Sequence record: PQ850626.1
Length of the DNA: 64,000 nucleotides
Direction: 5' to 3' (one strand)
DNA from: Escherichia phage SkaterBoy_Bas90
In this document: piece after piece, positions 31,040-63,946 of the stretch
Position numbering within the stretch: position 1 is the stretch's first letter
Layout: every line of letters begins with the position of its first letter
Program-made: the position numbers and the translations under genes
Notes under the pieces: model-generated
What the model saw: only the letters and a program-made list of their open reading frames with translations
What the model was told of the DNA's origin: nothing
Database searches by the model: none

Positions 31040-32525
<1,486 letters not shown>

Positions 32526-32526
<1 letters not shown>

Positions 32527-32786
32527 TATTCTATTCCACGCTCTTTCAGAGCTTCTAACAATCCATTGTGATTAGCAGCACATTCTGTGTACTGGTCCTG
32601 ATACCACTCCAACGTAGTGGCTAGTGCTTTTCCTTGAGCACTTTCTAAAAGAGGTAGGTCAACCCTACATTCAGCTTTTAGGTTTGTTGGTAAGGGCATT
32701 GATTGCCTGCTGTTGTCGCTCGTTGAACAAGCTGACATACTCATCACTAGCGCAGACATTATAAAAAACTGGTTTAGTTTTCTCAT
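32526..32786 (-). CDS. o-spanin (Rz1-like outer-membrane lipoprotein)
   Basis: internal ATG 32786 of track ORF 32526-32885; signal peptide with lipobox 'SMSAC', Pro/Cys-containing mature part; starts inside i-spanin gene in another frame. Confidence 0.5.
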
Positions 32787-33021
32787 AATGCATCTCTTTA
32801 TAAACGGTTTCCGTGTTCTTCTTCCAGTTAGATAAACCGGTAAGAACTCTCTGAGCAACTTCATCAGCTGCTCTACTTCTTTCAATCTCTAATTCTTGCT
32901 GGTGCTTCTCTTTGTCCAGATTACTGCTGTCTGTTTGATATTCGTTAAACTTCATACCACCAAAGAATACAAGAGCTGAGAAAACGATAAACCCTAAGTT
33001 ATCACTTAATGTGTTTTGCAT
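32671..33021 (-). CDS. i-spanin (Rz-like)
   Basis: N-terminal TMD 'LGFIVFSALVFFGG' then charged coiled coil; track GTG start 33045 lies inside the terminator hairpin, so ATG 33021 preferred. Confidence 0.5.
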   Translation of the reverse strand: MQNTLSDNLGFIVFSALVFFGGMKFNEYQTDSSNLDKEKHQQELEIERSRAADEVAQRVLTGLSNWKKNTETVYKEMHYEKTKPVFYNVCASDEYVSLFNERQQQAINALTNKPKS

Positions 33022-33030
33022 GTTGTCTCC

Positions 33031-33057
33031 AACGAAAAAAGCCACCCGGAGGTGGCT
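33031..33057 (-). terminator. rho-independent terminator after SSB
   Basis: AGCCACC-CGGA-GGTGGCT hairpin followed on minus strand by TTTTTTCGTT. Confidence 0.6.
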
Positions 33058-33078
33058 AAGCTATAACAAGGAGAGTTA

Positions 33079-33825
33079 TTAGAATGGGCTATCGTTGTCG
33101 TCTTCGTAAGTAGAAGCAGGCTCTTTATCAATCGTAGGGATTGAAGGAGTAGCTTCTTTCTGCTCTGTTTCAGAAGCACGAGTAATTTCACGACCAGCCA
33201 GAGGCATGTTCTTAGCGTCATTAGCTTGAGTAAGCAGGTTGCGCTGGAACGGGAACATCAGTTGGTAGGATGCTACGTTCTCGTCGGTTTCAGCATATGG
33301 TTCGAAGAATACCAGAGGACTACGAGCTTCACCAACTGCTGCACGATATTTGGTTGGGATTGGAGAAATGGTCTTGATGGAGTTTTTAACTTCACCAGCT
33401 TTGTTAGTATAAGAGTTAACCAGAATGTTAACAGGCTGACCTAACAGAACATCCTTGAACCAAGATAGATCACCTTTCAGTGCTTGAATACTTGGGTCAA
33501 TCATCTTGCAAAGATCAAGAATACCAGAGTTCTTAGCTCGTGGGTTTACATCATAGCTCTTGAACTGGCAAGCTGGACGTGGTTCTAATGCCTTACCATC
33601 GGAATCTTTACCAGTAGCATCAACACCAATCAGCTCGAAAGCTAAATCCATACGGAAAGCCGGATTCTTAGGAGTCACTGCTTTGGTCTTCGGGTCAATC
33701 CAAGGGTCACGATTGTGAACACCCAAACCTACTACACGAACGATACGTGCTTCGTACTCACCATCAGGGATTACATCGTAGTTGGATTTACGGGAAGCGG
33801 TTGCGATAGTTGGAATCATAGACAT
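33079..33825 (-). CDS. single-stranded DNA-binding protein
   Basis: 248 aa; acidic C-terminal tail '...STYEDDNDSPF'; sits in replication module. Confidence 0.6.
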   Translation of the reverse strand: MSMIPTIATASRKSNYDVIPDGEYEARIVRVVGLGVHNRDPWIDPKTKAVTPKNPAFRMDLAFELIGVDATGKDSDGKALEPRPACQFKSYDVNPRAKNSGILDLCKMIDPSIQALKGDLSWFKDVLLGQPVNILVNSYTNKAGEVKNSIKTISPIPTKYRAAVGEARSPLVFFEPYAETDENVASYQLMFPFQRNLLTQANDAKNMPLAGREITRASETEQKEATPSIPTIDKEPASTYEDDNDSPF

Positions 33826-34241
33826 ATTTTAATTTCCTTATTTAATTTGAAAGATTGTTGCTCTCTTTGAGCGGTTATGTATAGTATACATTACGCTTAT
33901 ACCGATAAGAGTACTATATAATATAAGTATCTTTGGTAGTAGATATATCACACTAGTAATGTATATATTGTATAGCTGATAAAGTTATTGCAGGCTTGTA
34001 TATTGGGCAATTCACAGAATCCCTTGCAAGTACCGAAGGGCAGGAGCCACCTGCGAGATAAAAATAGAGAATTAAGGAATCCTTGATTTAGGTTGTAGGG
34101 ACTCCTAGGGACTTTGATTCTCTATTTAAAAGAATATTAATTACTTATTACCTAAATAATTAACTAACTTACTTAAACCAAATTCAAGAATAATAGATAA
34201 AAAGATTATTCCTAAGAAAGCTAAAAAGTAAAGAATATAAG
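33826..34241. other. 416-bp ORF-free AT-rich region with inverted/direct repeats (candidate origin/promoter hub)
   Basis: repeated GTATA motifs, TAGGGACT x2, 11-bp inverted repeat AAATAGAGAAT/ATTCTCTATTT. Confidence 0.4.
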
Positions 34242-34490
34242 TTACCATTCAAGTAAACCTTTAAAATTAGATTTTTCTACTATCCTCTGATAACGAAGAT
34301 TAGAATCAGCTTGTTTCTTTAACATCTCATTATATTGATCTCTAATAGAGTCTTTATAAACTACAGGTTCTTTAAATAATGAGATCTTGTTCTTTTCTTC
34401 TTTCATCAAAGACCTTCCTAATCTCTTGCAGAGAAACAGCTTTATAGTCAATTTGCTCCATTGATGTACAGAAATATCTCCAATCATCAA
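34242..34490 (-). CDS. hypothetical small protein (start probably internal)
   Basis: track ORF overlapping 3' end of phosphoesterase gene in another frame. Confidence 0.3.
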   Translation of the reverse strand: MMIGDISVHQWSKLTIKLFLCKRLGRSLMKEEKNKISLFKEPVVYKDSIRDQYNEMLKKQADSNLRYQRIVEKSNFKGLLEW

Positions 34491-34875
34491 TTACATGGTT
34501 GTGTGTATGAGCATAAATGTTAAACTTTCCTCTCATCTCATCAGTGTGAATAGGAATATGAGTTACCCAAAACTCTTTATATTTATAATCACCAGAGATT
34601 CTACGGAAGACTTTCATCATATCATGGAGAAGTTCTAACCTGTCATGGTTTCCTAAGACTAGATGCTTCTCTCCTCTTACTTCAGCGATGATATCAAGGG
34701 CATACTTTTCAAACACCCAATCACCGGTAAAGAAGATTTTATCACGCTTAGTTACATGATCAAATGCAGCTAGGATTGCTTTGTCGTGTTCTTCGATGGT
34801 TTTAAATTGCTTACGAAAACTACAGATGTTGCGATGGCCTAAGTGACCATCCCCTGCAAAATAAACTTCAGCCAT
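34372..34875 (-). CDS. calcineurin-like metallophosphoesterase
   Basis: 167 aa; 'GDGHLGH', 'GDWVFE', 'GNHD', 'HTH' phosphoesterase motifs. Confidence 0.7.
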   Translation of the reverse strand: MAEVYFAGDGHLGHRNICSFRKQFKTIEEHDKAILAAFDHVTKRDKIFFTGDWVFEKYALDIIAEVRGEKHLVLGNHDRLELLHDMMKVFRRISGDYKYKEFWVTHIPIHTDEMRGKFNIYAHTHNHVIDDWRYFCTSMEQIDYKAVSLQEIRKVFDERRKEQDLII

Positions 34876-34884
34876 AAAGACCTC

Positions 34885-35100
34885 TTAGATAGTACACCCA
34901 TCACAAGTTAAGTCACCTAGCAGGGACAGGGAAAGTAATCTGGATTGCTCATCGCTGTATAGTTGATCAATCTCTTCTTTAAGTTTTGCCAACTCCATAA
35001 AGTTAATGAGCTGACCATGTTCGAGGCAGTCTGTTTTTAGTACGAACAAAACTTCAGCGTTGGTTGAGTCTTCACTTGAGTATTTATCAATGTATTCCAT
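34885..35100 (-). CDS. hypothetical protein
   Basis: 71 aa track ORF. Confidence 0.4.
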   Translation of the reverse strand: MEYIDKYSSEDSTNAEVLFVLKTDCLEHGQLINFMELAKLKEEIDQLYSDEQSRLLSLSLLGDLTCDGCTI

Positions 35101-35102
35101 TT

Positions 35103-35345
35103 TTATGCCACATCTCCTTGTTTGTTGTTAATAACATCCAGTGCTGTATAAGCTTTACCTGTTCCTAAGTATTCCAAAACTGGAGGACTCTTCTTTTCTT
35201 CAGCGACTACATAAGGTGTGATCTTCCCTTTCAGTACAGCCTGAGATGCTTTAGCACTGTCTTCAGAGGTATGAATAGTAGTAAGCCCTTTCTTTCCAAT
35301 TCTATAAGTGTGAACCCAAATCATTCTTCTTCCCCATATTCCCAA
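35103..35345 (-). CDS. hypothetical protein (start likely ATG 35324, ATGA overlap)
   Basis: track ORF. Confidence 0.4.
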   Translation of the reverse strand: MGIWGRRMIWVHTYRIGKKGLTTIHTSEDSAKASQAVLKGKITPYVVAEEKKSPPVLEYLGTGKAYTALDVINNKQGDVA

Positions 35346-35488
35346 TTTCTTTCATAATATCCAGAGTTATAGTTTAGGGCGCACTTCTCGGCCTCTTCTA
35401 TGTCGTCGGTGTTTAGGATATTCACCCACCCTCCAGCTTCATCAAAACCTTCTTCTTCCTCGTTAATCCATACACTATATTTCTTCAT
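35321..35488 (-). CDS. small acidic hypothetical protein (55 aa)
   Basis: hand-translated MKKYSVWINEEEEGFDEAGGWVNILNTDDIEEAEKCALNYNSGYYERNWEYGEEE; ATGA overlap with upstream stop. Confidence 0.3.
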   Translation of the reverse strand: MKKYSVWINEEEEGFDEAGGWVNILNTDDIEEAEKCALNYNSGYYERNWEYGEEE

Positions 35489-35877
35489 CGAATCACCAAA
35501 GGCTCTTCAGAGTACACAGGAGCGGCTATTTCTACAGGAGGTGCTGCCCTAAGGTCATTAAGTCTTACGCCCTTCAGCATACCGTCTAGGTGGTCCTTTT
35601 TGGGGATTCCAACAGGGAAGTCATCAATCCAGATATCGACGAAGAAACCTAACTGTCGACACACCTCATCCTTCTGCACACCATTACAAAAGATGATAGG
35701 AATCTGCAAACACTCTGCATCAATCTTAATGTCATAATTATCATACCCATTAGGCTCTGCAAAGCGATAAGTTACAAAGCGTACATCGTAGCCCTTTTCT
35801 TGCATTAATGCCACCACAGAGCGCCACAGCTTTTTATCTGAGGTGTAAGTGTCATCGTAATCTAAACCAATATTCAT
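35485..35877 (-). CDS. HAD-superfamily phosphatase (5'-nucleotidase-like)
   Basis: starts 'MNIGLDYDDTYT' (DxDxT motif I); track TTG start 35895 lies in terminator hairpin. Confidence 0.5.
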   Translation of the reverse strand: MNIGLDYDDTYTSDKKLWRSVVALMQEKGYDVRFVTYRFAEPNGYDNYDIKIDAECLQIPIIFCNGVQKDEVCRQLGFFVDIWIDDFPVGIPKKDHLDGMLKGVRLNDLRAAPPVEIAAPVYSEEPLVIR

Positions 35878-35890
35878 GTCAAATCCTTTA

Positions 35891-35917
35891 GACAAGAAAA
35901 GCCGCCCGAAGGCAGCT
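35891..35917 (-). terminator. UUCG-tetraloop hairpin + U-rich tract (minus strand)
   Basis: plus AGCCGCC-CGAA-GGCAGCT; on minus followed by TTTCTTGTCT. Confidence 0.45.
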
Positions 35918-36109
35918 TCTTATTTAACTGTTCACTTTAGCTTCAAGTGTTTCGTTTTCAATACTCAAGTCAATCACTACACCAGTAAGCTCAACGACTG
36001 CTTGGCGAAGGGCATCTTTACCCATAGAGTGTACTTGAGATAAGAAGAAAGCTTTACCTTCTTCAGTGGATAGGGTTTCTTTTAATTCAGAAGCAGTCAT
36101 TGATATTCC

Positions 36110-36304
36110 TTATGTTATGTTATAAATTCGCATGATTGTACCACCATTGGCTTCAATAGCAGCAACCATTTGGTTTCGTTCTTCATCCGTGTAAACTAAC
36201 ACACTTCTAAACTCGCCTGTTGCATCAGTATAAAGGATGTTATATTTTGGAGGCGGTTTACGGTAAATACCTTCCATCACTCTTTCTCCTCTCGTTCTTT
36301 CCAC
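36110..36304 (-). CDS. hypothetical protein
   Basis: 64 aa track ORF. Confidence 0.4.
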   Translation of the reverse strand: MERTRGERVMEGIYRKPPPKYNILYTDATGEFRSVLVYTDEERNQMVAAIEANGGTIMRIYNIT

Positions 36305-36460
36305 AGTTCGGCTAGCTCTAGATAGAACTCAGCCTCATCAGGACGACCTTGTTCATTACAGATGGCGCTCTGACGATAACACCAATCCGATGGCATCTCT
36401 TCCACTTCAATCTCCTTGTTACGAACCAATCAATAAGAATAGTTCATTCGTCTTATTTAT

Positions 36461-36655
36461 TCACTCTACCAATGCAGGTACTTCTATCCTTTTAACTGTG
36501 AATGTCTTGTTTGGAAACTTTCGAACTAGCTCTGCTGCTTTGGTTATTGCTAAGTTCTCTGTCTCAAAGATACACAGTTGACCATTTAATGCTACGAGAG
36601 TGGAGCCACCGCTGAAGACGGCCCAAGATTCATAATAACCACGAACACTCATCAC
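36461..36655 (-). CDS. hypothetical protein
   Basis: 64 aa track ORF, coupled to next. Confidence 0.4.
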   Translation of the reverse strand: MMSVRGYYESWAVFSGGSTLVALNGQLCIFETENLAITKAAELVRKFPNKTFTVKRIEVPALVE

Positions 36656-37020
36656 TCAACCTCAATATTATATAGAGTTTTCAGTGTATCTTTAATCCAA
36701 GTAATTCTTTTTTGGTTCTTGTGGTGTGATCTGTTATCCCTATCTCTGAAATATTGGTCACAGCCAAAAGGGTATGTATGGTCCGAGAATTTATCTTGGT
36801 TAAACATATTCTTCATGTCATCCACGTCTAGATGTTTTGTGAAATAATAATACTTCTTATAACAGCGGAAGTTGAAGCATAGTCCGTGATCTTCGTTAAA
36901 CCAAGGAGGACACTCTTCTGTTTGAGTTATATGATAATACTGGAGGAGGAAATCTTCCATCCCTCTCTCCTTGAATAAACACCTAAGTGTTCTATAGATT
37001 ATATTAGTTTCTTTCATCAC
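36652..37020 (-). CDS. hypothetical protein
   Basis: 122 aa, Cys/His/aromatic-rich. Confidence 0.45.
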   Translation of the reverse strand: MMKETNIIYRTLRCLFKERGMEDFLLQYYHITQTEECPPWFNEDHGLCFNFRCYKKYYYFTKHLDVDDMKNMFNQDKFSDHTYPFGCDQYFRDRDNRSHHKNQKRITWIKDTLKTLYNIEVE

Positions 37021-37025
37021 TCACC

Positions 37026-38870
37026 TTAGTGTGTGTGCATCCAGTTAAGTCCAATCTGACAATCAGATGCCAGAGGACATTCCATGTTCAGATACTCGCC
37101 AGCTTTCTTAACACAAAGCTCAGTGTGCTCTTTGAGTTTCTGTACATCATTACGGTTTACTGAGAATTGACCTTCATCGTGCATATCAATTACCTTAGCA
37201 CAACGAACCTTATCTTTCTCAATCCACTTGTTAAGGAACATCATAGCATATTTCATAACAACAGCACCAGCACATTGCAGGAGTGTGTTAAGGGCTTTAT
37301 GAACCATAACCTTACCAGTGGCATCCCGTCTCATTGTAATCTTACGACCATCAACTCCAATCAAGTATCCTTGAGCAGCTTTCTCTGTCATACGATCAAT
37401 GAGGATTGCAATACATGGGTTCTCTGCTAAGAAACGTGCTCGCATCACTGAACCTTCGTCAGCCCCACCACCTACAATTGAACCAAGCTTAGCATCGCCA
37501 GCACCGTAGTTGAATGCATAGATAAACGTTTTAGCGTTGTCACGAGTAGGAAGACCAGCAAGTTTCTGGTTGTGGGAGTGGATATCACCTTCAAGGAGAA
37601 TATCACGATACATAATAGCAGAAGCTAAACCACGTTCTGCCAGAGCTTTCTTAGCTGGGTTGTTCTCTTCAATTGCCTCAGCAAGCATATCCCTACACTC
37701 TTTAATGAGGTAGTGAGCGAGCATACGAAGTTCAAGTCCAGAACCATCATACCCCAAGAATACTTCTTTACCAGCGGGTATGTAATATTTGTAAGCGCCT
37801 ACAGGTTTGTCTTTCTTCCCCGGCTTACCTTTCTCGTAAATTACGTTAGTACCTTTTCGTATATAACAACCATCAGGAACAACGTTAGTAATAACGAAAG
37901 GACGAGAGTGATCACTGTCTGAGTTATAGTCAGACTCAAACAAACTGCGACACTCGTGACCAAACAAACCACGGGAGGGAATATTAACCACGATACGATG
38001 TTTGAATCGAAAAGTTGGCGTAGCGCAGCTGTTAGCTTCTGCCGAAAGTTTACCATCTTCGCGTTCCTTTGCTATGAGTCCACTGATAAGACCTAGCCTG
38101 TGAGCCGCTACAACGCGTCTCTTAAGCAAACTTCCGACACTCCCTAGCTCACCCCCTAACCCTTCTTCAAGAGTCTCCTCGAGGTTTGTAGGAGCTGTAG
38201 GCCACTTGTTTGATGTGGCTAGTGCTTTCTTAATCTCATCAAACGTTACAGGATTACGACGATTCGGGTTTAATCCCAAACCAAATACGTAAGCCTTCAT
38301 ATAATTCTTAGTTTTAAACCTGAAATGCTTTTCTAAGAACTTCTTAATATCAGCGTCAACCATCTCGGCTGTCTGCTTCTGCTTAGCATTGCCTCGCATC
38401 CAAGCAGTATACCATGCTTGGTACGTTCCATACTTTCTCATATCTTTCTTAATTTCGAAAGTATTCCAAGGCTTCTTAGATACGTTAAACTCTGGAGGAA
38501 GAAAGCCCTCATCCATAAGAGCTTCTTTAACTCGTGCATCTTTCGATGGGTCAAAGTCTACGTATTCGACACAGGTGAAAGCTCCACCAATATCTTCTCT
38601 CTTCAGCCCAACCCTATCACAATAGGCTTGAGGCCACTTCTGTAAAGCTCCAGACTTCTTAAACGGCTTCATGTAAGTAGAGCCGTCTAATCTCATCTTA
38701 GGTAAGAGAGGAATCAACTCTCTGTCAATATTAACAATAATCTCTTTAAGGAGGTGAACATACCACCGAGCATTTCTTCGGTTGAAACTCACTCCGTGCT
38801 TTGCTTGCTTAGAGATTATATCAGCGACAGTCATCTCTGTCAAAAATGGAAGAGCGTCCGGGTTGCTCAC
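37026..38870 (-). CDS. DNA polymerase, family A (polymerase domain only)
   Basis: 614 aa; motif A 'YDGSGLELRMLAHY', motif B 'RDNAKTFIYAFNYGAG', motif C 'VIDMHDEGQF'; no DEDD exonuclease motifs. Confidence 0.85.
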   Translation of the reverse strand: MSNPDALPFLTEMTVADIISKQAKHGVSFNRRNARWYVHLLKEIIVNIDRELIPLLPKMRLDGSTYMKPFKKSGALQKWPQAYCDRVGLKREDIGGAFTCVEYVDFDPSKDARVKEALMDEGFLPPEFNVSKKPWNTFEIKKDMRKYGTYQAWYTAWMRGNAKQKQTAEMVDADIKKFLEKHFRFKTKNYMKAYVFGLGLNPNRRNPVTFDEIKKALATSNKWPTAPTNLEETLEEGLGGELGSVGSLLKRRVVAAHRLGLISGLIAKEREDGKLSAEANSCATPTFRFKHRIVVNIPSRGLFGHECRSLFESDYNSDSDHSRPFVITNVVPDGCYIRKGTNVIYEKGKPGKKDKPVGAYKYYIPAGKEVFLGYDGSGLELRMLAHYLIKECRDMLAEAIEENNPAKKALAERGLASAIMYRDILLEGDIHSHNQKLAGLPTRDNAKTFIYAFNYGAGDAKLGSIVGGGADEGSVMRARFLAENPCIAILIDRMTEKAAQGYLIGVDGRKITMRRDATGKVMVHKALNTLLQCAGAVVMKYAMMFLNKWIEKDKVRCAKVIDMHDEGQFSVNRNDVQKLKEHTELCVKKAGEYLNMECPLASDCQIGLNWMHTH

Positions 38871-38886
38871 TTTATACTCCTTTAAA

Positions 38887-39309
38887 TTATTGGTAAAGTA
38901 AATCTGTAAATGCTTGGTTATCTTCTACTACATTCAACATGGTAGCTTCATCACTATAAGCCCTAACCGTCCCGTTGACAACTGTCCAAGGAGGAGGTGG
39001 AGGTGGTGCATGGTTAGCCCTATCTTCACGAGGTTGCTCTCGTACTAAATGAGCCACAACCCTCTGATTAGCAACTTCTTCTCTTTCTCTGATAGCTCTC
39101 TGAATGTAGGCCAGCTTCATGCCCCAAGCTTCTTCAAACTCTTGAGGGTGTTTATCACTGATAACAACATACTGACGTTCAGTAATACCAGAGCGAATTT
39201 CTGATAATAATTCATGGAACAAATCCAGTTCATGTTCAGTGAGATTCATTTCGATATCATCCCACTTGAGAACTAAGAAACGGTTTGGATATCTAGCTGG
39301 TAATGGCAT
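38887..39309 (-). CDS. hypothetical protein
   Basis: 140 aa, poly-Pro 'APPPPPPW'. Confidence 0.45.
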   Translation of the reverse strand: MPLPARYPNRFLVLKWDDIEMNLTEHELDLFHELLSEIRSGITERQYVVISDKHPQEFEEAWGMKLAYIQRAIREREEVANQRVVAHLVREQPREDRANHAPPPPPPWTVVNGTVRAYSDEATMLNVVEDNQAFTDLLYQ

Positions 39310-39310
39310 C

Positions 39311-39469
39311 CTACTCCACCTCTACTTCAATGTAAGTTCTCTCGCCAACATCGTCTTTTAAGACCCATGACTTGGCATCTTCTTCCGACTTAAAAGCTTT
39401 CACAACGCTGTATCCGCCTTCCCATTCATCGCCGAACCAGCGCTGTCCTACGTAAATGTATTCTTTCAT
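39311..39469 (-). CDS. small hypothetical protein (52 aa)
   Basis: hand-translated MKEYIYVGQRWFGDEWEGGYSVVKAFKSEEDAKSWVLKDDVGERTYIEVEVE. Confidence 0.3.
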   Translation of the reverse strand: MKEYIYVGQRWFGDEWEGGYSVVKAFKSEEDAKSWVLKDDVGERTYIEVEVE

Positions 39470-39472
39470 CAC

Positions 39473-39757
39473 TCAACCTCTTGGGAATGGCATCAAAAAT
39501 TCCATAGCAGATTTAATCTCATTATTGATTCGTGAATCACGATAAGAGATAAACTTACCTTTGCTATCACGTAACATCACATGGGTTCTGGCTGTTTTGT
39601 GAGGGAGCAATGTGATACTAGTTGGAATAGCATCAATCCCTACAGCGTATTTGTCAATAGTCTTACTTTCAGCCAACAGATAAGACCAAGTACGCGGTTT
39701 CTGCTCCGGGCGGTTAGGGTATGTGTCCCGAATTTGAACCATAGCTAACTTATTCAT
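39473..39757 (-). CDS. small paralog family A, copy 1
   Basis: shares '...TART.V.LR...GKFISY...E.L.PFP(R/K)G' with next gene. Confidence 0.45.
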   Translation of the reverse strand: MNKLAMVQIRDTYPNRPEQKPRTWSYLLAESKTIDKYAVGIDAIPTSITLLPHKTARTHVMLRDSKGKFISYRDSRINNEIKSAMEFLMPFPRG

Positions 39758-57384: not shown

Positions 57385-58348
57385 TGTAATACTCCACTAG
57401 TTCAGAAAAGAGAGATGAGATTGTGTTACCAACTTCTTCAAGAGTAAGACCGGAATCTGCTCCAGTTCTTTGAATCAGTCGGGATGTAAAGTTTTGTACC
57501 GTAATGTTTCCCAACTTGTCGTCTATTGCTTCACGTTTGTGACCATAACAGTTGGACCAGAGTCTTAACCACTCTGACATTGTTTCATACTCGTCTGGGT
57601 CTTGATCTTTAGCACGAGCAAATCTTCGTAAGGCATCTTGGTTGTGGTTACGAACATAACCATTCTCATTGTCGCCAACACCGAAGGGGTTTTGAACCCA
57701 TACTTGCTTCGTATATTCATCAGAGTCTACAACCAAAGGAAGGAAAGCTGCTGCTGACATATTGTTGTTAATAACAATAGAGGTGCTCTCGCTACTCCCA
57801 TTGGCTCTTCCTCGTTGAGACCACCCACCGAAGAAGTCACGACCCAACCCAGCTAACACTAGAGCGATGCCGATGCGTTTACGCTTCAGCCACTCTTCCC
57901 TGTCTTCAATTCCTTCTGCTAGGAAATCCATTCCACGATATTGCCCTTCCAGAATACTACGGAAGAGCATAAGTCCTGTGAAGATCTGATCTGCTGGATG
58001 CTCACGAAGATTGACAGCAACACTGTTCGCTGAAGTGATAGTAAATACATCACGATAGCAAGACATAGAATTCATAATGTCTGCTGTTTCAATCAAGTTC
58101 TTTTCAATATCAGATGGAACATGACCATGAAAAGAGTGGGTCCAGTAATTCAACATCTCCAATTGCAAGTTAATGTCACGGTTGAAGCGTTTATGGCGCC
58201 CATCTTCCATTACACATTCGTCATTAACATCATATACGACTTGACCTTGCATGTAGTTGTGGATACCGAAGCACCCACGACCTAAGAACTTCTGTTCCCC
58301 TAAATCCTGTTGAAGATTAAGAGGTACGATCGTTGTGGAGATTGACAT
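57377..58348 (-). CDS. hypothetical protein (ligase operon)
   Basis: 323 aa track ORF. Confidence 0.45.
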   Translation of the reverse strand: MSISTTIVPLNLQQDLGEQKFLGRGCFGIHNYMQGQVVYDVNDECVMEDGRHKRFNRDINLQLEMLNYWTHSFHGHVPSDIEKNLIETADIMNSMSCYRDVFTITSANSVAVNLREHPADQIFTGLMLFRSILEGQYRGMDFLAEGIEDREEWLKRKRIGIALVLAGLGRDFFGGWSQRGRANGSSESTSIVINNNMSAAAFLPLVVDSDEYTKQVWVQNPFGVGDNENGYVRNHNQDALRRFARAKDQDPDEYETMSEWLRLWSNCYGHKREAIDDKLGNITVQNFTSRLIQRTGADSGLTLEEVGNTISSLFSELVEYYND

Positions 58349-58358
58349 AACTAACCTT

Positions 58359-59558
58359 TTATTTTCCTAAAAATAATCCGCTCATAATACCATCCCACTC
58401 AGAGGACGGAATCACTGAATACTCCGAACTTTGGTCCAGAGTTCCACTACTAAATCGCTGAATGATGTTGTAGATGTTGAACAGGTCTTTAGCCTCGGCA
58501 CGAATGCCGTAGATTAACCTGTTAGCTGTTTTCTCATTTTTAGACACGCGACGGGTAAAGTTAACCAAAAGATTATCACCTTTAAGTGTCTCTGACCCGT
58601 CTTTTACTAGATCGGGGTGCATCACTGGCAAGAACATTGAGTTGTTAACTCGTAATTCTGCTGTTTCATCATTCTCGTAATGAATCCACTTAAAGTCTTC
58701 ATCACGGAAATGACCGCATCCATCTCTATATGACTGTTGACGCCAAGGCACTTGAAATACTTCAGCGTATTTATTAGCCATGCCAACTGTAAACAGCGAC
58801 GCTGGGAAGATACAAGCATCCCAATCATTACCAACCAGAGTTGCTTTCGTTTCCCCTAAGAGGTTAGTGTAAGTGCTAACCATTCGCGAGTAAACATAAG
58901 CCTGAAGGATTGTCCAGCCTTCAACCAACCATTTGTGGAGGAAGGTTTCAACTTGACTCTCTTCATCTTCACAATAGAAGATTCGGTCTAACATCAAATA
59001 GAACAGACAACGATCAGCAGGGATATTCTCAGTTGCTACCCCCATAAAACCTTTATCGTGCCAGCGTAAACAGGAGGGACGATCTTTGTCCACAAATGCT
59101 TCCATAGCTTCCAGTACAGCACGAGGTGTGGTTCGATGCTCAGGGTTTTTGTCGTTCCAACGTTCGATGTTGTTCTTAGGGGGCGTGTCTTCATCTTCAT
59201 ACGAACACCAACTTAAAGCTTCAGCTACATGCTTTTCATCACGCCAACGTCTAAAACCTAACATCTTCATATGAGTTCCAGAGTTCCAGATATGCTTGAT
59301 TTTACACATATCCATCTCTCGGCTTAACAGGAACTCTTCCCCATCAGCACTACGAACGTTAGCTTCTTCATGCCACACTCGAACGTGCATATTCCATCCA
59401 TGAGTTGCCTCATACATGTTAGGGTCGAAGTAGTCATCATACTCTTCATCGTCTTCATCAACGCCACCGTTATAGTTGCGAAGCTGAAGGAACCCATAAC
59501 AAGGAGGGTTGACTGTTAAAACATTACCTTCAGTATCTTCTAATGTTACTGGAAACAT
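58359..59558 (-). CDS. hypothetical protein (ligase operon)
   Basis: 399 aa track ORF. Confidence 0.45.
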   Translation of the reverse strand: MFPVTLEDTEGNVLTVNPPCYGFLQLRNYNGGVDEDDEEYDDYFDPNMYEATHGWNMHVRVWHEEANVRSADGEEFLLSREMDMCKIKHIWNSGTHMKMLGFRRWRDEKHVAEALSWCSYEDEDTPPKNNIERWNDKNPEHRTTPRAVLEAMEAFVDKDRPSCLRWHDKGFMGVATENIPADRCLFYLMLDRIFYCEDEESQVETFLHKWLVEGWTILQAYVYSRMVSTYTNLLGETKATLVGNDWDACIFPASLFTVGMANKYAEVFQVPWRQQSYRDGCGHFRDEDFKWIHYENDETAELRVNNSMFLPVMHPDLVKDGSETLKGDNLLVNFTRRVSKNEKTANRLIYGIRAEAKDLFNIYNIIQRFSSGTLDQSSEYSVIPSSEWDGIMSGLFLGK

Positions 59559-60771: not shown

Positions 60772-61003
60772 AGGGGAAATTCCTTAAAAAATTATGGCTG
60801 CGTAGAGGGAATTCCCTACGCAAATCGGGCCGCCCACAGAGAGGCGTCATAGTACTAAAAGGAGGAGAGAAGAGGGCTTATTTAGCTACCTTTTTCTGTC
60901 CGTTTACGAACCAGATAATTGAACCGTCAGGCTGTCGTTGACCGAAGCCTTTCTGGTTAATCATATCGTCATAAGAATATGCTTTACGTCTCATTTGTTT
61001 TCC

Positions 61004-61258
61004 CTACGAAGTTAAGATGATTTCAGCCTTAATAAACTTCTCACCAACAACCATATCACCAGAGATGACACGTAGTTCTCCAGTGCCTAGGTTAACAGCT
61101 CCAGCAGGTTGACAACCCCTGCTTTTAGCTGTCATCATATAAACCTTTTGATTTTGGCACTCTTGGAGAGTGAACACATCTGACATATTTAGATCTCTGA
61201 CGCGGAGGATTTTTTCCTCTTTGTCTTTAACTTTAATGTTAATAATGCTCATATGCAC
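61004..61258 (-). CDS. small paralog family C, copy 4
   Basis: 84 aa; shares K-rich N-terminus and '(V/I)..L..G..F' pattern with the three upstream genes. Confidence 0.45.
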   Translation of the reverse strand: MHMSIINIKVKDKEEKILRVRDLNMSDVFTLQECQNQKVYMMTAKSRGCQPAGAVNLGTGELRVISGDMVVGEKFIKAEIILTS

Positions 61259-61503
61259 TACTCCTGAACCACTGACATACGAATCATTTCTACCTGATCA
61301 TCAAGACCTTTAACAGATAACACACCTGTGGAAAGGTTTACCACAGGAACCCAACCACTGGCTATACGGATGTTACCAGAAGCATTTTCAACCCTCATGT
61401 AATACTGAGGAGAGGCACTTCCGTTCTGAACCACGAAAGGGTTTCCGGGAATGATTGTTTCCAATCGTACCGTATTATCCTTTTTCTTTGGGATGATTTT
61501 CAT
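61258..61503 (-). CDS. small paralog family C, copy 3
   Basis: 81 aa 'MKIIPKKKDNTVRLETIIPGNPF...'. Confidence 0.45.
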   Translation of the reverse strand: MKIIPKKKDNTVRLETIIPGNPFVVQNGSASPQYYMRVENASGNIRIASGWVPVVNLSTGVLSVKGLDDQVEMIRMSVVQE

Positions 61504-61751
61504 TGCGTATTATCCACCAAAAGTTCTGCTGATACAGGAACAACTCGGCACCAGATAGAAGGTGCTGTTACGTTACCATCGGATAGACGAAGAGTAATTG
61601 TTCGATCAGAGTTAACGGTTACATTAGGACTTTCAGACACAGACCCTTTAACATAGAGAGTAGCACTCTCAGGGAATTTAAACACTGCTCCGCTGGGGAG
61701 GGAGTTGAGATCAATCGTGGTCACTTCTTCTTTCTTGTGGGTAATCTTCAT
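61500..61751 (-). CDS. small paralog family C, copy 2
   Basis: 83 aa 'MKITHKKEEVTTIDLNSLPSGAVFKF...'. Confidence 0.45.
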   Translation of the reverse strand: MKITHKKEEVTTIDLNSLPSGAVFKFPESATLYVKGSVSESPNVTVNSDRTITLRLSDGNVTAPSIWCRVVPVSAELLVDNTQ

Positions 61752-62002
61752 TTAGAATCCTTAATAACGTTAGCTTCAACCTTAACAGGAATAACAGAGA
61801 TGCCCTCAACGGGGCCACTTAAGTGTCCATCTTCCAGTCTGACACACACGACTCGATCTCGTGCAACTTCTACCCAATTAGTAGATGCCGCAGTACAGAC
61901 CATATGAATTGGACCGTTCTCTTCCAGCCGGAAGGTATCGCCCTTCTTCAGAGTGTGGAGTTTCACAGTCTTGATAGTTTTGTTCAATTCGTTAACTTTC
62001 AT
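61748..62002 (-). CDS. small paralog family C, copy 1
   Basis: 84 aa 'MKVNELNKTIKTVKLHTLKKGDTFRLE...'. Confidence 0.45.
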   Translation of the reverse strand: MKVNELNKTIKTVKLHTLKKGDTFRLEENGPIHMVCTAASTNWVEVARDRVVCVRLEDGHLSGPVEGISVIPVKVEANVIKDSK

Positions 62003-62010
62003 ATTGATTC

Positions 62011-62322
62011 CTATTTAAGTTTGAGGCTAATGTTAAGGTGCATACATGCTCTGTTCTGTACAGCAGCATAACTTCTACCGAGCATGTCAGCCATTCTCTG
62101 AATAGACATGAACCCAGCATTACGGATAAGGAACTGGTCCTCTTCTTCAGACCATTTAACTCGGATTGAAGCTCTTGATATGCCGAATTTAGTGCAAGCT
62201 GTGTTAACAGCATTCTCCGTTACATTCATAATCTGAGCTACTTCTTGAACCGAGTACTCTTTGATTAGTCTCCGAAGATTTTCAATCTGCATCGGAGTCC
62301 ATATAGTTCTTCGTGCTTTCAT
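62011..62322 (-). CDS. double helix-turn-helix protein (two sigma-region-4-like HTH repeats), putative transcription regulator
   Basis: 'YSVQEVAQIMNVTENAVNTA' and 'MSIQRMADMLGRSYAAVQNRA'. Confidence 0.5.
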   Translation of the reverse strand: MKARRTIWTPMQIENLRRLIKEYSVQEVAQIMNVTENAVNTACTKFGISRASIRVKWSEEEDQFLIRNAGFMSIQRMADMLGRSYAAVQNRACMHLNISLKLK

Positions 62323-62676
62323 ACATCCTCCAATTAATTGTTAAAACTATCAGGGGAGAACACTAGCTCTGGGCCACGCTGTAGATATTGGCCTACCTTC
62401 CACAGCTAATCAGCTAATATACTCCCCTAATAGTTTATGAATAGGGGGAGGGGACGAATCCTCCCTTATCCTATTAGTTAATATTGCATGTAAGATCTAA
62501 CAATCGGTTGCCTTTGTAGGAATAAGCGTAAAGCCAATCCAGCACTAAACTCCCGCCCCCTTAGTGGGCTGGGTTATTAAAGGGTAACGCCCTTATGGGC
62601 TAGTTACATGAATGTTAGTTTGATAGGAGATCTGAAGTCCTATCTCAAAGGACTCTCGTAAGAATCCTTCACGATA
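62323..62676. other. ~350-bp ORF-free region rich in GC hairpins (regulatory region or candidate ncRNA)
   Basis: nested inverted repeats CTAATAG/CTATTAG and GGGAGG/CCTCCC; GCCC-TTAT-GGGC. Confidence 0.35.
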
Positions 62677-62817
62677 TTACTTATTCATCTCTCGTCGGCT
62701 ATCTCTCCAAGCCAACCAAGTGTAGGTTTTCAGTTCTTCAAAGTCTTCTGGAGAGAATAGATACTCTTTGAAGGTGTTCCCAAACCACTCTAAAAATTCT
62801 TCAGTCATAAGATTCTC

Positions 62818-62991
62818 TTAACAAGATTGGTCACACGGCTGATCACCACATGTTTTACAGATCACTGGTGAGTAACTACAGGCAGGATAAACAGACACCC
62901 CATCAAACGTCTCACATCCACAATCAGGACATGTACCGTTGGATTCCATGTCATCATCGTCATCTACTTCACCGCCACCAAAACAACTCAT
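62818..62991 (-). CDS. small Cys-rich zinc-ribbon protein (57 aa)
   Basis: hand-translated MSCFGGGEVDDDDDMESNGTCPDCGCETFDGVSVYPACSYSPVICKTCGDQPCDQSC; SD AAGGAG. Confidence 0.35.
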   Translation of the reverse strand: MSCFGGGEVDDDDDMESNGTCPDCGCETFDGVSVYPACSYSPVICKTCGDQPCDQSC

Positions 62992-63000
62992 ACAGGCTCC

Positions 63001-63222
63001 TTAGTAAACTAAACCTGTAGCCTTTGCATCAGGCTGAGGGACTACTTTTGCACTAGGGCGATAGCCATCCACTGAGCCGTTCCAAAGATTGACACAGGTG
63101 ATATATCCATCGTCTATGATGTCTGTTTTAATCCAGAAGTGTTTATCATGACCAAAAATACTTCCGTTTGGCAGCGTGGACAATTCAACAGTTTTAAGTG
63201 ACTGCTTAGAGTCTAGTTTCAT
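63001..63222 (-). CDS. small paralog family C, distal copy
   Basis: 73 aa 'MKLDSKQSLKTVELSTLPNGSIFGHD...'. Confidence 0.45.
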   Translation of the reverse strand: MKLDSKQSLKTVELSTLPNGSIFGHDKHFWIKTDIIDDGYITCVNLWNGSVDGYRPSAKVVPQPDAKATGLVY

Positions 63223-63231
63223 ATAAGTTCC

Positions 63232-63429
63232 TTAATATACCAAACCATGTAAAAGAAACATCCTCTTTGTAAGCTCTGCTTTAGCTCTGTAATAAGCCTT
63301 AGAACCTAACAGGCGGCTCTTAACAAAGAACTTAATGTCATTGCTAACATCTTGTATTAAACGCTCCTGTACAGTTTCTGAGGAGTTATTAATCGAATCA
63401 ATTAACACCTTTGTAGATGTGTAATTCAT
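63232..63429 (-). CDS. hypothetical protein (65 aa; internal ATG of track ORF 63232-63621)
   Basis: ATG 63429 sits 1 nt after lipoprotein stop. Confidence 0.35.
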   Translation of the reverse strand: MNYTSTKVLIDSINNSSETVQERLIQDVSNDIKFFVKSRLLGSKAYYRAKAELTKRMFLLHGLVY

Positions 63430-63870: not shown

Positions 63871-63946
63871 TGGTGCGCCCTACAGGACTCGAACCTGTAA
63901 CCAATAGCTTAGAAGGCTACTGCTCTATCCATTGAGCTAAGAGCGC
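63871..63946 (-). tRNA. tRNA-Arg (anticodon UCU), CCA encoded
   Basis: hand-folded cloverleaf: acceptor GCGCTCT/AGGGCGC, D-arm GCTC-AATGGATA-GAGC, anticodon arm GTAGC-CTTCTAA-GCTAT, T-arm ACAGG-TTCGAGT-CCTGT, discriminator A + CCA. Confidence 0.85.

Follow-up and report, generated by a model that had tools for sequence, protein, structure and literature searches.

Diverged small early genes of a phiEco32-like phage belong to a widespread family of predicted SH3-like proteins

Five small genes fall between positions 61004 and 63222 of Escherichia phage SkaterBoy_Bas90 (sequence record PQ850626.1), of which we analyzed a 64,000-nucleotide stretch, hereafter the window. Are these genes descendants of one ancestor, and if so, what might a phage do with so many versions of one short protein? 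A preliminary description, made from the letters of the sequence, had seen an array of paralogs in the early region and likened it to host-takeover or anti-defense factors under diversifying selection. We found that the genes are indeed paralogs, that each of them is held by purifying selection and that they belong to a family found in many other phages. The explanation toward which we lean, with somewhat more belief than doubt, is a lineage-specific expansion of widespread, stand-alone SH3-like binding modules that are made early and likely have diverse host targets.

The window is a kuravirus sequence of the phiEco32-like type. Over positions 60800-63300 it shows 100% identity to Escherichia phage vB_EcoP_DE5 (MW741821; Gordonclarkvirinae, Kuravirus; hereafter DE5). 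With lower identity or less coverage, the same positions match 108 phage records, which come almost entirely from phiEco32-like coliphages. The five open reading frames (ORFs) lie on the minus strand at the coordinates first assigned to them, the start of one apart, and in MW741821 all five are labeled 'hypothetical protein'. Four follow one another. Copy A (61748-62002; 84 amino acids (aa)) is the first gene after a helix-turn-helix (HTH) regulator and fills the slot of phiEco32 gp98 with an allele that differs from phiEco32 gp98. Copies B (61500-61751; 83 aa), C (61258-61503; 81 aa) and D (61004-61252; 82 aa from its ATG) are orthologs of phiEco32 gp97, gp96 and gp95, respectively, D being the most divergent of all. 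Copy E (63001-63222; 73 aa), the ortholog of phiEco32 gp104, stands about 1 kb away from the array.

Pairwise identity among A-E is low (21-29%), and the case for common descent draws on three kinds of comparison. Smith-Waterman z-scores, computed against 500 shuffles, were 18.9 for A-B, 6.6 for B-E, 6.5 for A-E, 5.0 for A-C and 3.7 for C-E, with D weak by this measure (z <=3.7 against the other copies). The copies also match each other's PHROG families, D for example matching phrog_7431 at 1.5e-4. Finally, a hidden Markov model (HMM) built solely from 78 distant members, each <38% identical to any DE5 copy, was run on 497 ORFs from the window and flanking DE5 sequence; it recovered A (E-value 2e-22), B (2.6e-18), C (4.5e-15), D (1.6e-11) and E (1.5e-16), and the best unrelated window ORF scored 1.2. 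The 78 sequences came from a search seeded with copies A-E, but despite this seeding the same model picked up five ORFs absent from the seed. Sequence comparison thus finds significant similarity and confirms the five genes as true, although diverged, paralogs.

What the copies share can be written as a family consensus, MKI..K...V.L..L..GDVF...YMK...VNL.tG...V.PV.aE, of which the core noted in the preliminary description ('K.V.L..L..G..F') is a part. A-E all fit the family pattern, one domain within the 68-92 aa range that carries MKI, L..L..GDxF, YMK, VNL.tG and V.PV.aE, with some departures: D carries Ser at the near-invariant Gly of the GDxF motif, and C carries GNPF and is without the Pro of V.PV.

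The five ORFs absent from the seed show that an array of five, although all of its members are present, understates the family. These additional members, F-J, are consecutive small genes on the minus strand just past the window end (MW741821 29312-30493; 12915-14153 in L001), in a cluster that matches the phiEco32 gp113-115 region. The independent HMM scored them at E-values of 2.4e-11 to 7e-4, which brings the DE5 total to 10 copies. Smith-Waterman z-scores across the clusters reached 19.2 for E-F and 11.4 for E-I, making copy E the closest link between the window array and the second cluster, within which H-J (9.2) and I-J (7.4) also score well.

Does selection drive these copies apart? Nei-Gojobori ratios of nonsynonymous to synonymous substitution (dN/dS) for the window copies against their orthologs in seven phages were 0.03-0.13 for A, 0.06-0.33 for B, 0.05-0.35 for C, 0-0.24 for D and 0.05-0.19 for E; medians were 0.04-0.24 for the family copies and 0-0.18 for neighboring early genes. 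All of these gene-wide pairwise values are well below 1. Every copy is therefore a functional gene kept by purifying selection, and gene-wide diversifying selection, as first suggested for the array, is not supported. Substitutions between orthologs cluster in the N-terminal linker, in the segment from YMK to VNL and in the loop that follows glycine two, and among the 55 copy C orthologs on file, variation is focused in two loops.

Diversity within the family has other sources, as a comparison across related phages, one that the preliminary description had proposed, makes apparent. With the family HMM run on phage early regions, we counted 3 copies (E, C and D) in LAMP, of the small-genome 68.5-kb clade, at least 6 in the partial locus of 172-1, 8 in Paul, 9 each in SU10, phiEco32 and ES17, and 11 in EP335; in ECBP2 (Suseptimavirus), several copies lie within a 5.2-kb stretch. 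Copy E was found in all eight Gordonclarkvirinae phages scanned, LAMP included, and copy B is missing from SU10 and LAMP. The slot after the regulator holds a different member (MNFELVPK...) in phiEco32 and ES17, a third allele in 172-1 and two members in EP335. Identity to the window copy is bimodal, at 91-98% or 68-72% for C and 84-100% or 51-56% for D, and such bimodality at single slots points to exchange of whole alleles. We attribute the diversity, as it appears from these comparisons, to old duplication, gain and loss, and whole-allele replacement. The range of 3 to 11 copies supports the view that relatives differ in number and allele as expected of accessory genes.

How far does the family extend? 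We searched 1.84 billion cluster representatives exhaustively with HMMER; at E<1e-3, 103 representatives (50% identity clusters) matched, almost all of them full-length proteins of 68-92 aa. Giant repetitive proteins (1475-3353 aa) that matched the first profile were dropped as repeat artifacts, because many unrelated Pfam families also match them, without a single significant stretch. HMM members elsewhere include N4 gp21 (3.7e-16), PaP3 ORF65 (1.1e-10) and two genes of Vibrio phage 1.101.O, and a Foldseek search of BFVD found relatives in phages named for Erwinia, Serratia, Proteus, Dickeya, Klebsiella, Morganella, Salmonella and others. In metagenomic contigs, members are again amplified and set in strings of small unidirectional ORFs: one contig (L015) has 5-6 adjacent members, one of them a fused two-domain protein, another (L017) has two adjacent members, and a 172-kb phage contig (L019) has three, two of them adjacent. 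Tandem arrays thus recur, together with a fused two-domain version, in unrelated phages. Other searches added little: tblastn, which proved too insensitive here, matched only kuraviruses and one vibriophage when queried with the consensus or with a distant member, and a second, word-indexed protein search with a broad alignment gave almost no additional members.

Databases do not yet recognize these proteins as one group. Sequence searches of Pfam, NCBIfam, PADLOC and PDB with the five copies, with the consensus and with 104 family members gave no match, and in PADLOC-DB neither the copies nor the consensus had a hit even at E<=1. In PHROGs, the family is scattered over at least seven groups without functional annotation (7832, 7431, 12612, 6570, 8365, 9955 and 16423), a splitting that hides the paralogy in current annotation. 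N4 gp21 and PaP3 ORF65 resemble the kuravirus copies in sequence family, length, motif and predicted fold, and in lying among early or middle accessory genes; they differ in being single-copy in N4 and PaP3, as opposed to the 10 copies of DE5. The family, as a set of stand-alone phage proteins of 68-92 aa, could be named 'N4 gp21-like'.

PaP3 and the kuraviruses also have a gene module in common, which encodes an ATP-grasp protein, an amidoligase, a COOH-NH2 ligase, a glutamine amidotransferase and the products of two large hypothetical genes (NC_004466 ~32292-39596 in PaP3; SU10 and positions 57377-59558 of the window among kuraviruses). In both, the small-gene early region with its family member directly precedes the module in the direction of transcription.

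What kind of protein do these genes encode? AlphaFold2 models of A and D (predicted local distance difference test (pLDDT) 89.3 and 88.2, respectively) are both small and all-beta. By visual count, the top-50 BFVD neighbors of the two models have about 34 entries in common, and each list includes orthologs of the other copy and N4 gp21. Given this overlap, the predicted structures of A and D belong to one fold family and not to unrelated folds, an outcome that the preliminary description had left to structure prediction. The predicted model has five strands and superposes on solved SH3, Tudor or KOW domains, and a small beta-barrel of SH3/Tudor/KOW-like type is the fold predicted for the family. 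Domains of similar fold include the uL2 SH3 domain, EF-P domain I, the DtxR/IdeR SH3 domain, PWWP, the Tudor-like domains of UvrD and CarD, FeoA and VapX. Identity to the SH3, Tudor and KOW domains is 5-21% with no profile match, so that the likeness is at the level of the fold only; moreover, the phage proteins stand alone, whereas their counterparts are domains of larger proteins. We did not find the combination of profile match and binding residues that marks the RNA-polymerase-binding domains of KOW/NusG-Spt5, CarD and UvrD Tudor-like type.

Conservation across the family (in A numbering) comprises M1, G21, F24, L56, G59, V70 and the hydrophobic core; D22, N55 and E76 are the only partly conserved polar positions, and the table of conserved columns holds no His, Cys or Ser pattern suggesting catalysis. 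The segment from YMK to VNL is highly variable in length. The clustering of substitutions between orthologs fits a constant scaffold with variable surfaces, although any small barrel would show the same.

When these proteins are made is indicated by where their genes lie. GC (guanine-cytosine) skew changes sign near 28 kb, which places the five-gene locus within the leftward-transcribed arm. In phiEco32, the leftward arm holds the experimentally defined early class, and in SU10, the corresponding arm is annotated as early genes 69-125; the authors regard the function of these early genes as mostly unknown, with host takeover likely (PMC8948821, PMC4281155). The early placement made in the preliminary description is thereby borne out. 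A role in the virion, by contrast, was rejected because the 34 proteins identified in SU10 particle preparations, a sample biased towards virions, include no family copy, and because the genes lie in the early arm.

Two smaller features of the early region were noted in passing. A tRNA-Arg gene (transfer RNA with anticodon TCT) lies inside it at 63871-63946 on the minus strand, in a position kept in phiEco32, LAMP, EP335, Paul and ECBP2. In addition, several tiny early ORFs of ~90-120 aa bear implausible names, 'DNA helicase', 'terminase' and 'polymerase' among them, in RefSeq and GenBank kuravirus records; such product names are probably annotation artifacts passed between these records.

Multi-copy families of small accessory genes occur in phage early or hyperplastic regions. 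The genes described here resemble them in being small, unidirectional and tightly packed early genes whose copies and alleles vary and of which single copies would be dispensable; they differ in that orthologs are under purifying and not diversifying selection. Only context supports an early accessory role for the family. With only the hydrophobic core and two glycine turns conserved, and with charge, loop length and loop sequence variable, the proteins would be non-enzymatic binding modules on one constant scaffold. Each copy would show a different surface and bind a different host macromolecule early in infection. The likely targets would be host proteins, possibly defense components, in which case the role would be host takeover or counter-defense; the copies would be individually dispensable, each being useful on some hosts. 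A host-takeover or anti-defense function, suggested by context, is unproven. Gordonclarkvirinae are reported to resist restriction-modification systems broadly, without a known inhibitor (PMC11990801), a phenotype that such proteins could explain, although there is no direct link between the two. A bolder version, in which the scaffold is a modular inhibitor, each copy neutralizes a different host immunity or housekeeping protein and the ten-copy expansion underlies broad resistance to restriction-modification and other defenses, strikes us as rather unlikely.

Several points weigh against the idea of binding modules with diverse host targets. Our literature search, which covered phiEco32 gp95-98 and gp104, toxicity screens, SH3-like early proteins and Kuravirus paralogs, found no paper on these genes, and no family member has an experimental function. 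Nor did we find a sequence link or a specific structural link to any characterized host-takeover or anti-defense protein; comparison with known anti-defense proteins (Ocr, Ard, Acr, Tad, Gad and others) revealed neither sequence nor structural similarity. Gene-wide dN/dS carries no sign of the positive selection that is often seen in arms-race proteins. The agreement in fold between A and D is not fully independent, as both modeling alignments contain the family. Loops evolve fastest in any small barrel and the fold is generic, which makes the argument from a scaffold with variable surfaces a weak one.

The main rival to a set of diverse host-directed modules, which we nevertheless think improbable, is that their partners are nucleic acid or components of the transcription or translation machinery, bound in the manner of KOW, Tudor, CarD or EF-P-like domains, and that the proteins tune host or phage expression instead of inhibiting defense. 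Structural neighbors suggest such a role, and the array is co-oriented with an HTH regulator and directly follows it; no regulator, however, adjoins the members in N4, PaP3 or the metagenomic contigs. Small proteins such as gp79 are also known to let phiEco32-like phages reprogram RNA polymerase (PMC12276001). The proteins themselves fit this role less well. The Pfam search gave no KOW, Tudor or CarD match, no basic or aromatic surface residue is conserved, and isoelectric points are heterogeneous (4.9-9.3 across the ten DE5 copies; family median 5.8, half of the members being acidic), a spread that argues against a uniform nucleic-acid-binding role.

A role internal to the phage fares less well still, and we regard it as distinctly unlikely. 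Here, partly redundant copies would serve as small adaptors or chaperones, either for replication or for the neighboring amidoligase/ATP-grasp modification module. Purifying selection on every copy would suit such a function, as would the fact that kuraviruses and PaP3 both have the amidoligase/COOH-NH2 ligase/glutamine amidotransferase module and, in the early region beside it, a member of the family. However, copies range from 1 to 11, LAMP keeps the module with 3, the members in N4 and the Vibrio phage sit where no such module is annotated, and whole alleles are swapped at single slots, as would seldom be expected of a part in a conserved machine. Least credible of all is that the genes are non-functional or selfish duplicates, gene-like ORFs maintained by tandem amplification alone: although tandem amplification recurs and no copy was detected in the virion-biased SU10 proteomics, every copy has a dN/dS far below 1 while dS reaches ~1-2.4, Shine-Dalgarno sites and ATGA coupling are intact, the genes are kept in >100 phage records and the motif is conserved across very distant phages.

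Host-directed binding modules thus remain the reading that we favor, and we offer the finding as a lead, not as the discovery of a mechanism. The family is abundant, with its 103 clusters spread over N4-like, PaP3-like, kuravirus, vibriophage and metagenomic phages, yet it has no curated model or solved structure. Recognizing at least seven PHROG groups as one family, amplified in tandem in unrelated phages, yields a defined candidate set for host-takeover and anti-defense screens, and natural copy-number variants for comparison already exist in LAMP (3) and EP335 (11).

How are the copies in the window expressed? The preliminary description had called the four contiguous genes translationally coupled. 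ATGA stop/start overlaps do join A to B and B to C, but C and D do not overlap when D is read from its ATG. A start at GTG 61258, as first proposed, would give D 84 aa; ATG 61252 is favored because it has AGGAG 8 nucleotides (nt) upstream, is the annotated start in MW741821 and agrees with the orthologs, all of which begin MSIINIK. ATG 61252 is thus most likely the start and GTG 61258 less likely so, which leaves a gap of 5 nt between C and D. On the other side of the array, 8 nt separate copy A from the regulator, a 103-aa double-HTH 'D5-like transcriptional regulator' (62011-62322, minus strand; phiEco32 gp99) that is not a family member and matches Pfam Sigma70_r4_2 (1.7e-7) and phrog_323 (1.2e-28).

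The order of the string, regulator first, is regulator-A-B-C-D-gp94, tightly packed and partly translationally coupled. Directly after the 38-aa gp94-like gene comes a terminator-like hairpin on the minus strand (60798-60823), a 10-bp stem followed by a T-rich tail. Because of this hairpin, the string is, as judged from the DNA sequence, likely one transcription unit, whose 3' end the hairpin may form.

Upstream of the regulator, in the sense of the transcript, lies a gene-free gap of 354 nt (62323-62676), in which we found no ORF and no Rfam match and which, folded whole as RNA, has a z-score of -4.56. Its first part, a 237-nt element on the minus strand (62440-62676), is a candidate for a new phage non-coding RNA or regulatory RNA. 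This element is 94.5-100% identical in 8/8 Gordonclarkvirinae fetched, which makes it far more conserved than the flanking genes with their dS of 0.1-1.4, and is ~76% identical in Suseptimavirus; it is unannotated in 132 phage records. Its full length can also be aligned with intergenic DNA from N4-like Gamaleyavirus phages, in which tRNA genes adjoin it, and its exact 19-nt core occurs in only nine IMG/VR contigs. The consensus structure has five helices with 97.9% of cells paired, and six compensatory pairs fall in three of the helices, compared with 0-2 in slid controls, although these represent only two or three independent events. A link between this RNA element and the protein family is not supported, as no member of the family is found near the element in the Gamaleyavirus loci.

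The 3' part of the gap (62323-62439, minus strand) is present only in kuraviruses of the DE5, SU10 and ES17 type and forms a long hairpin in the predicted fold; ARAGORN called no tRNA in it. Some of this part (TTAG.TGATTAGCTGTGGAAGGTAG) also follows the element in two phages of Gamaleyavirus, Mimir124 and UE-M6.

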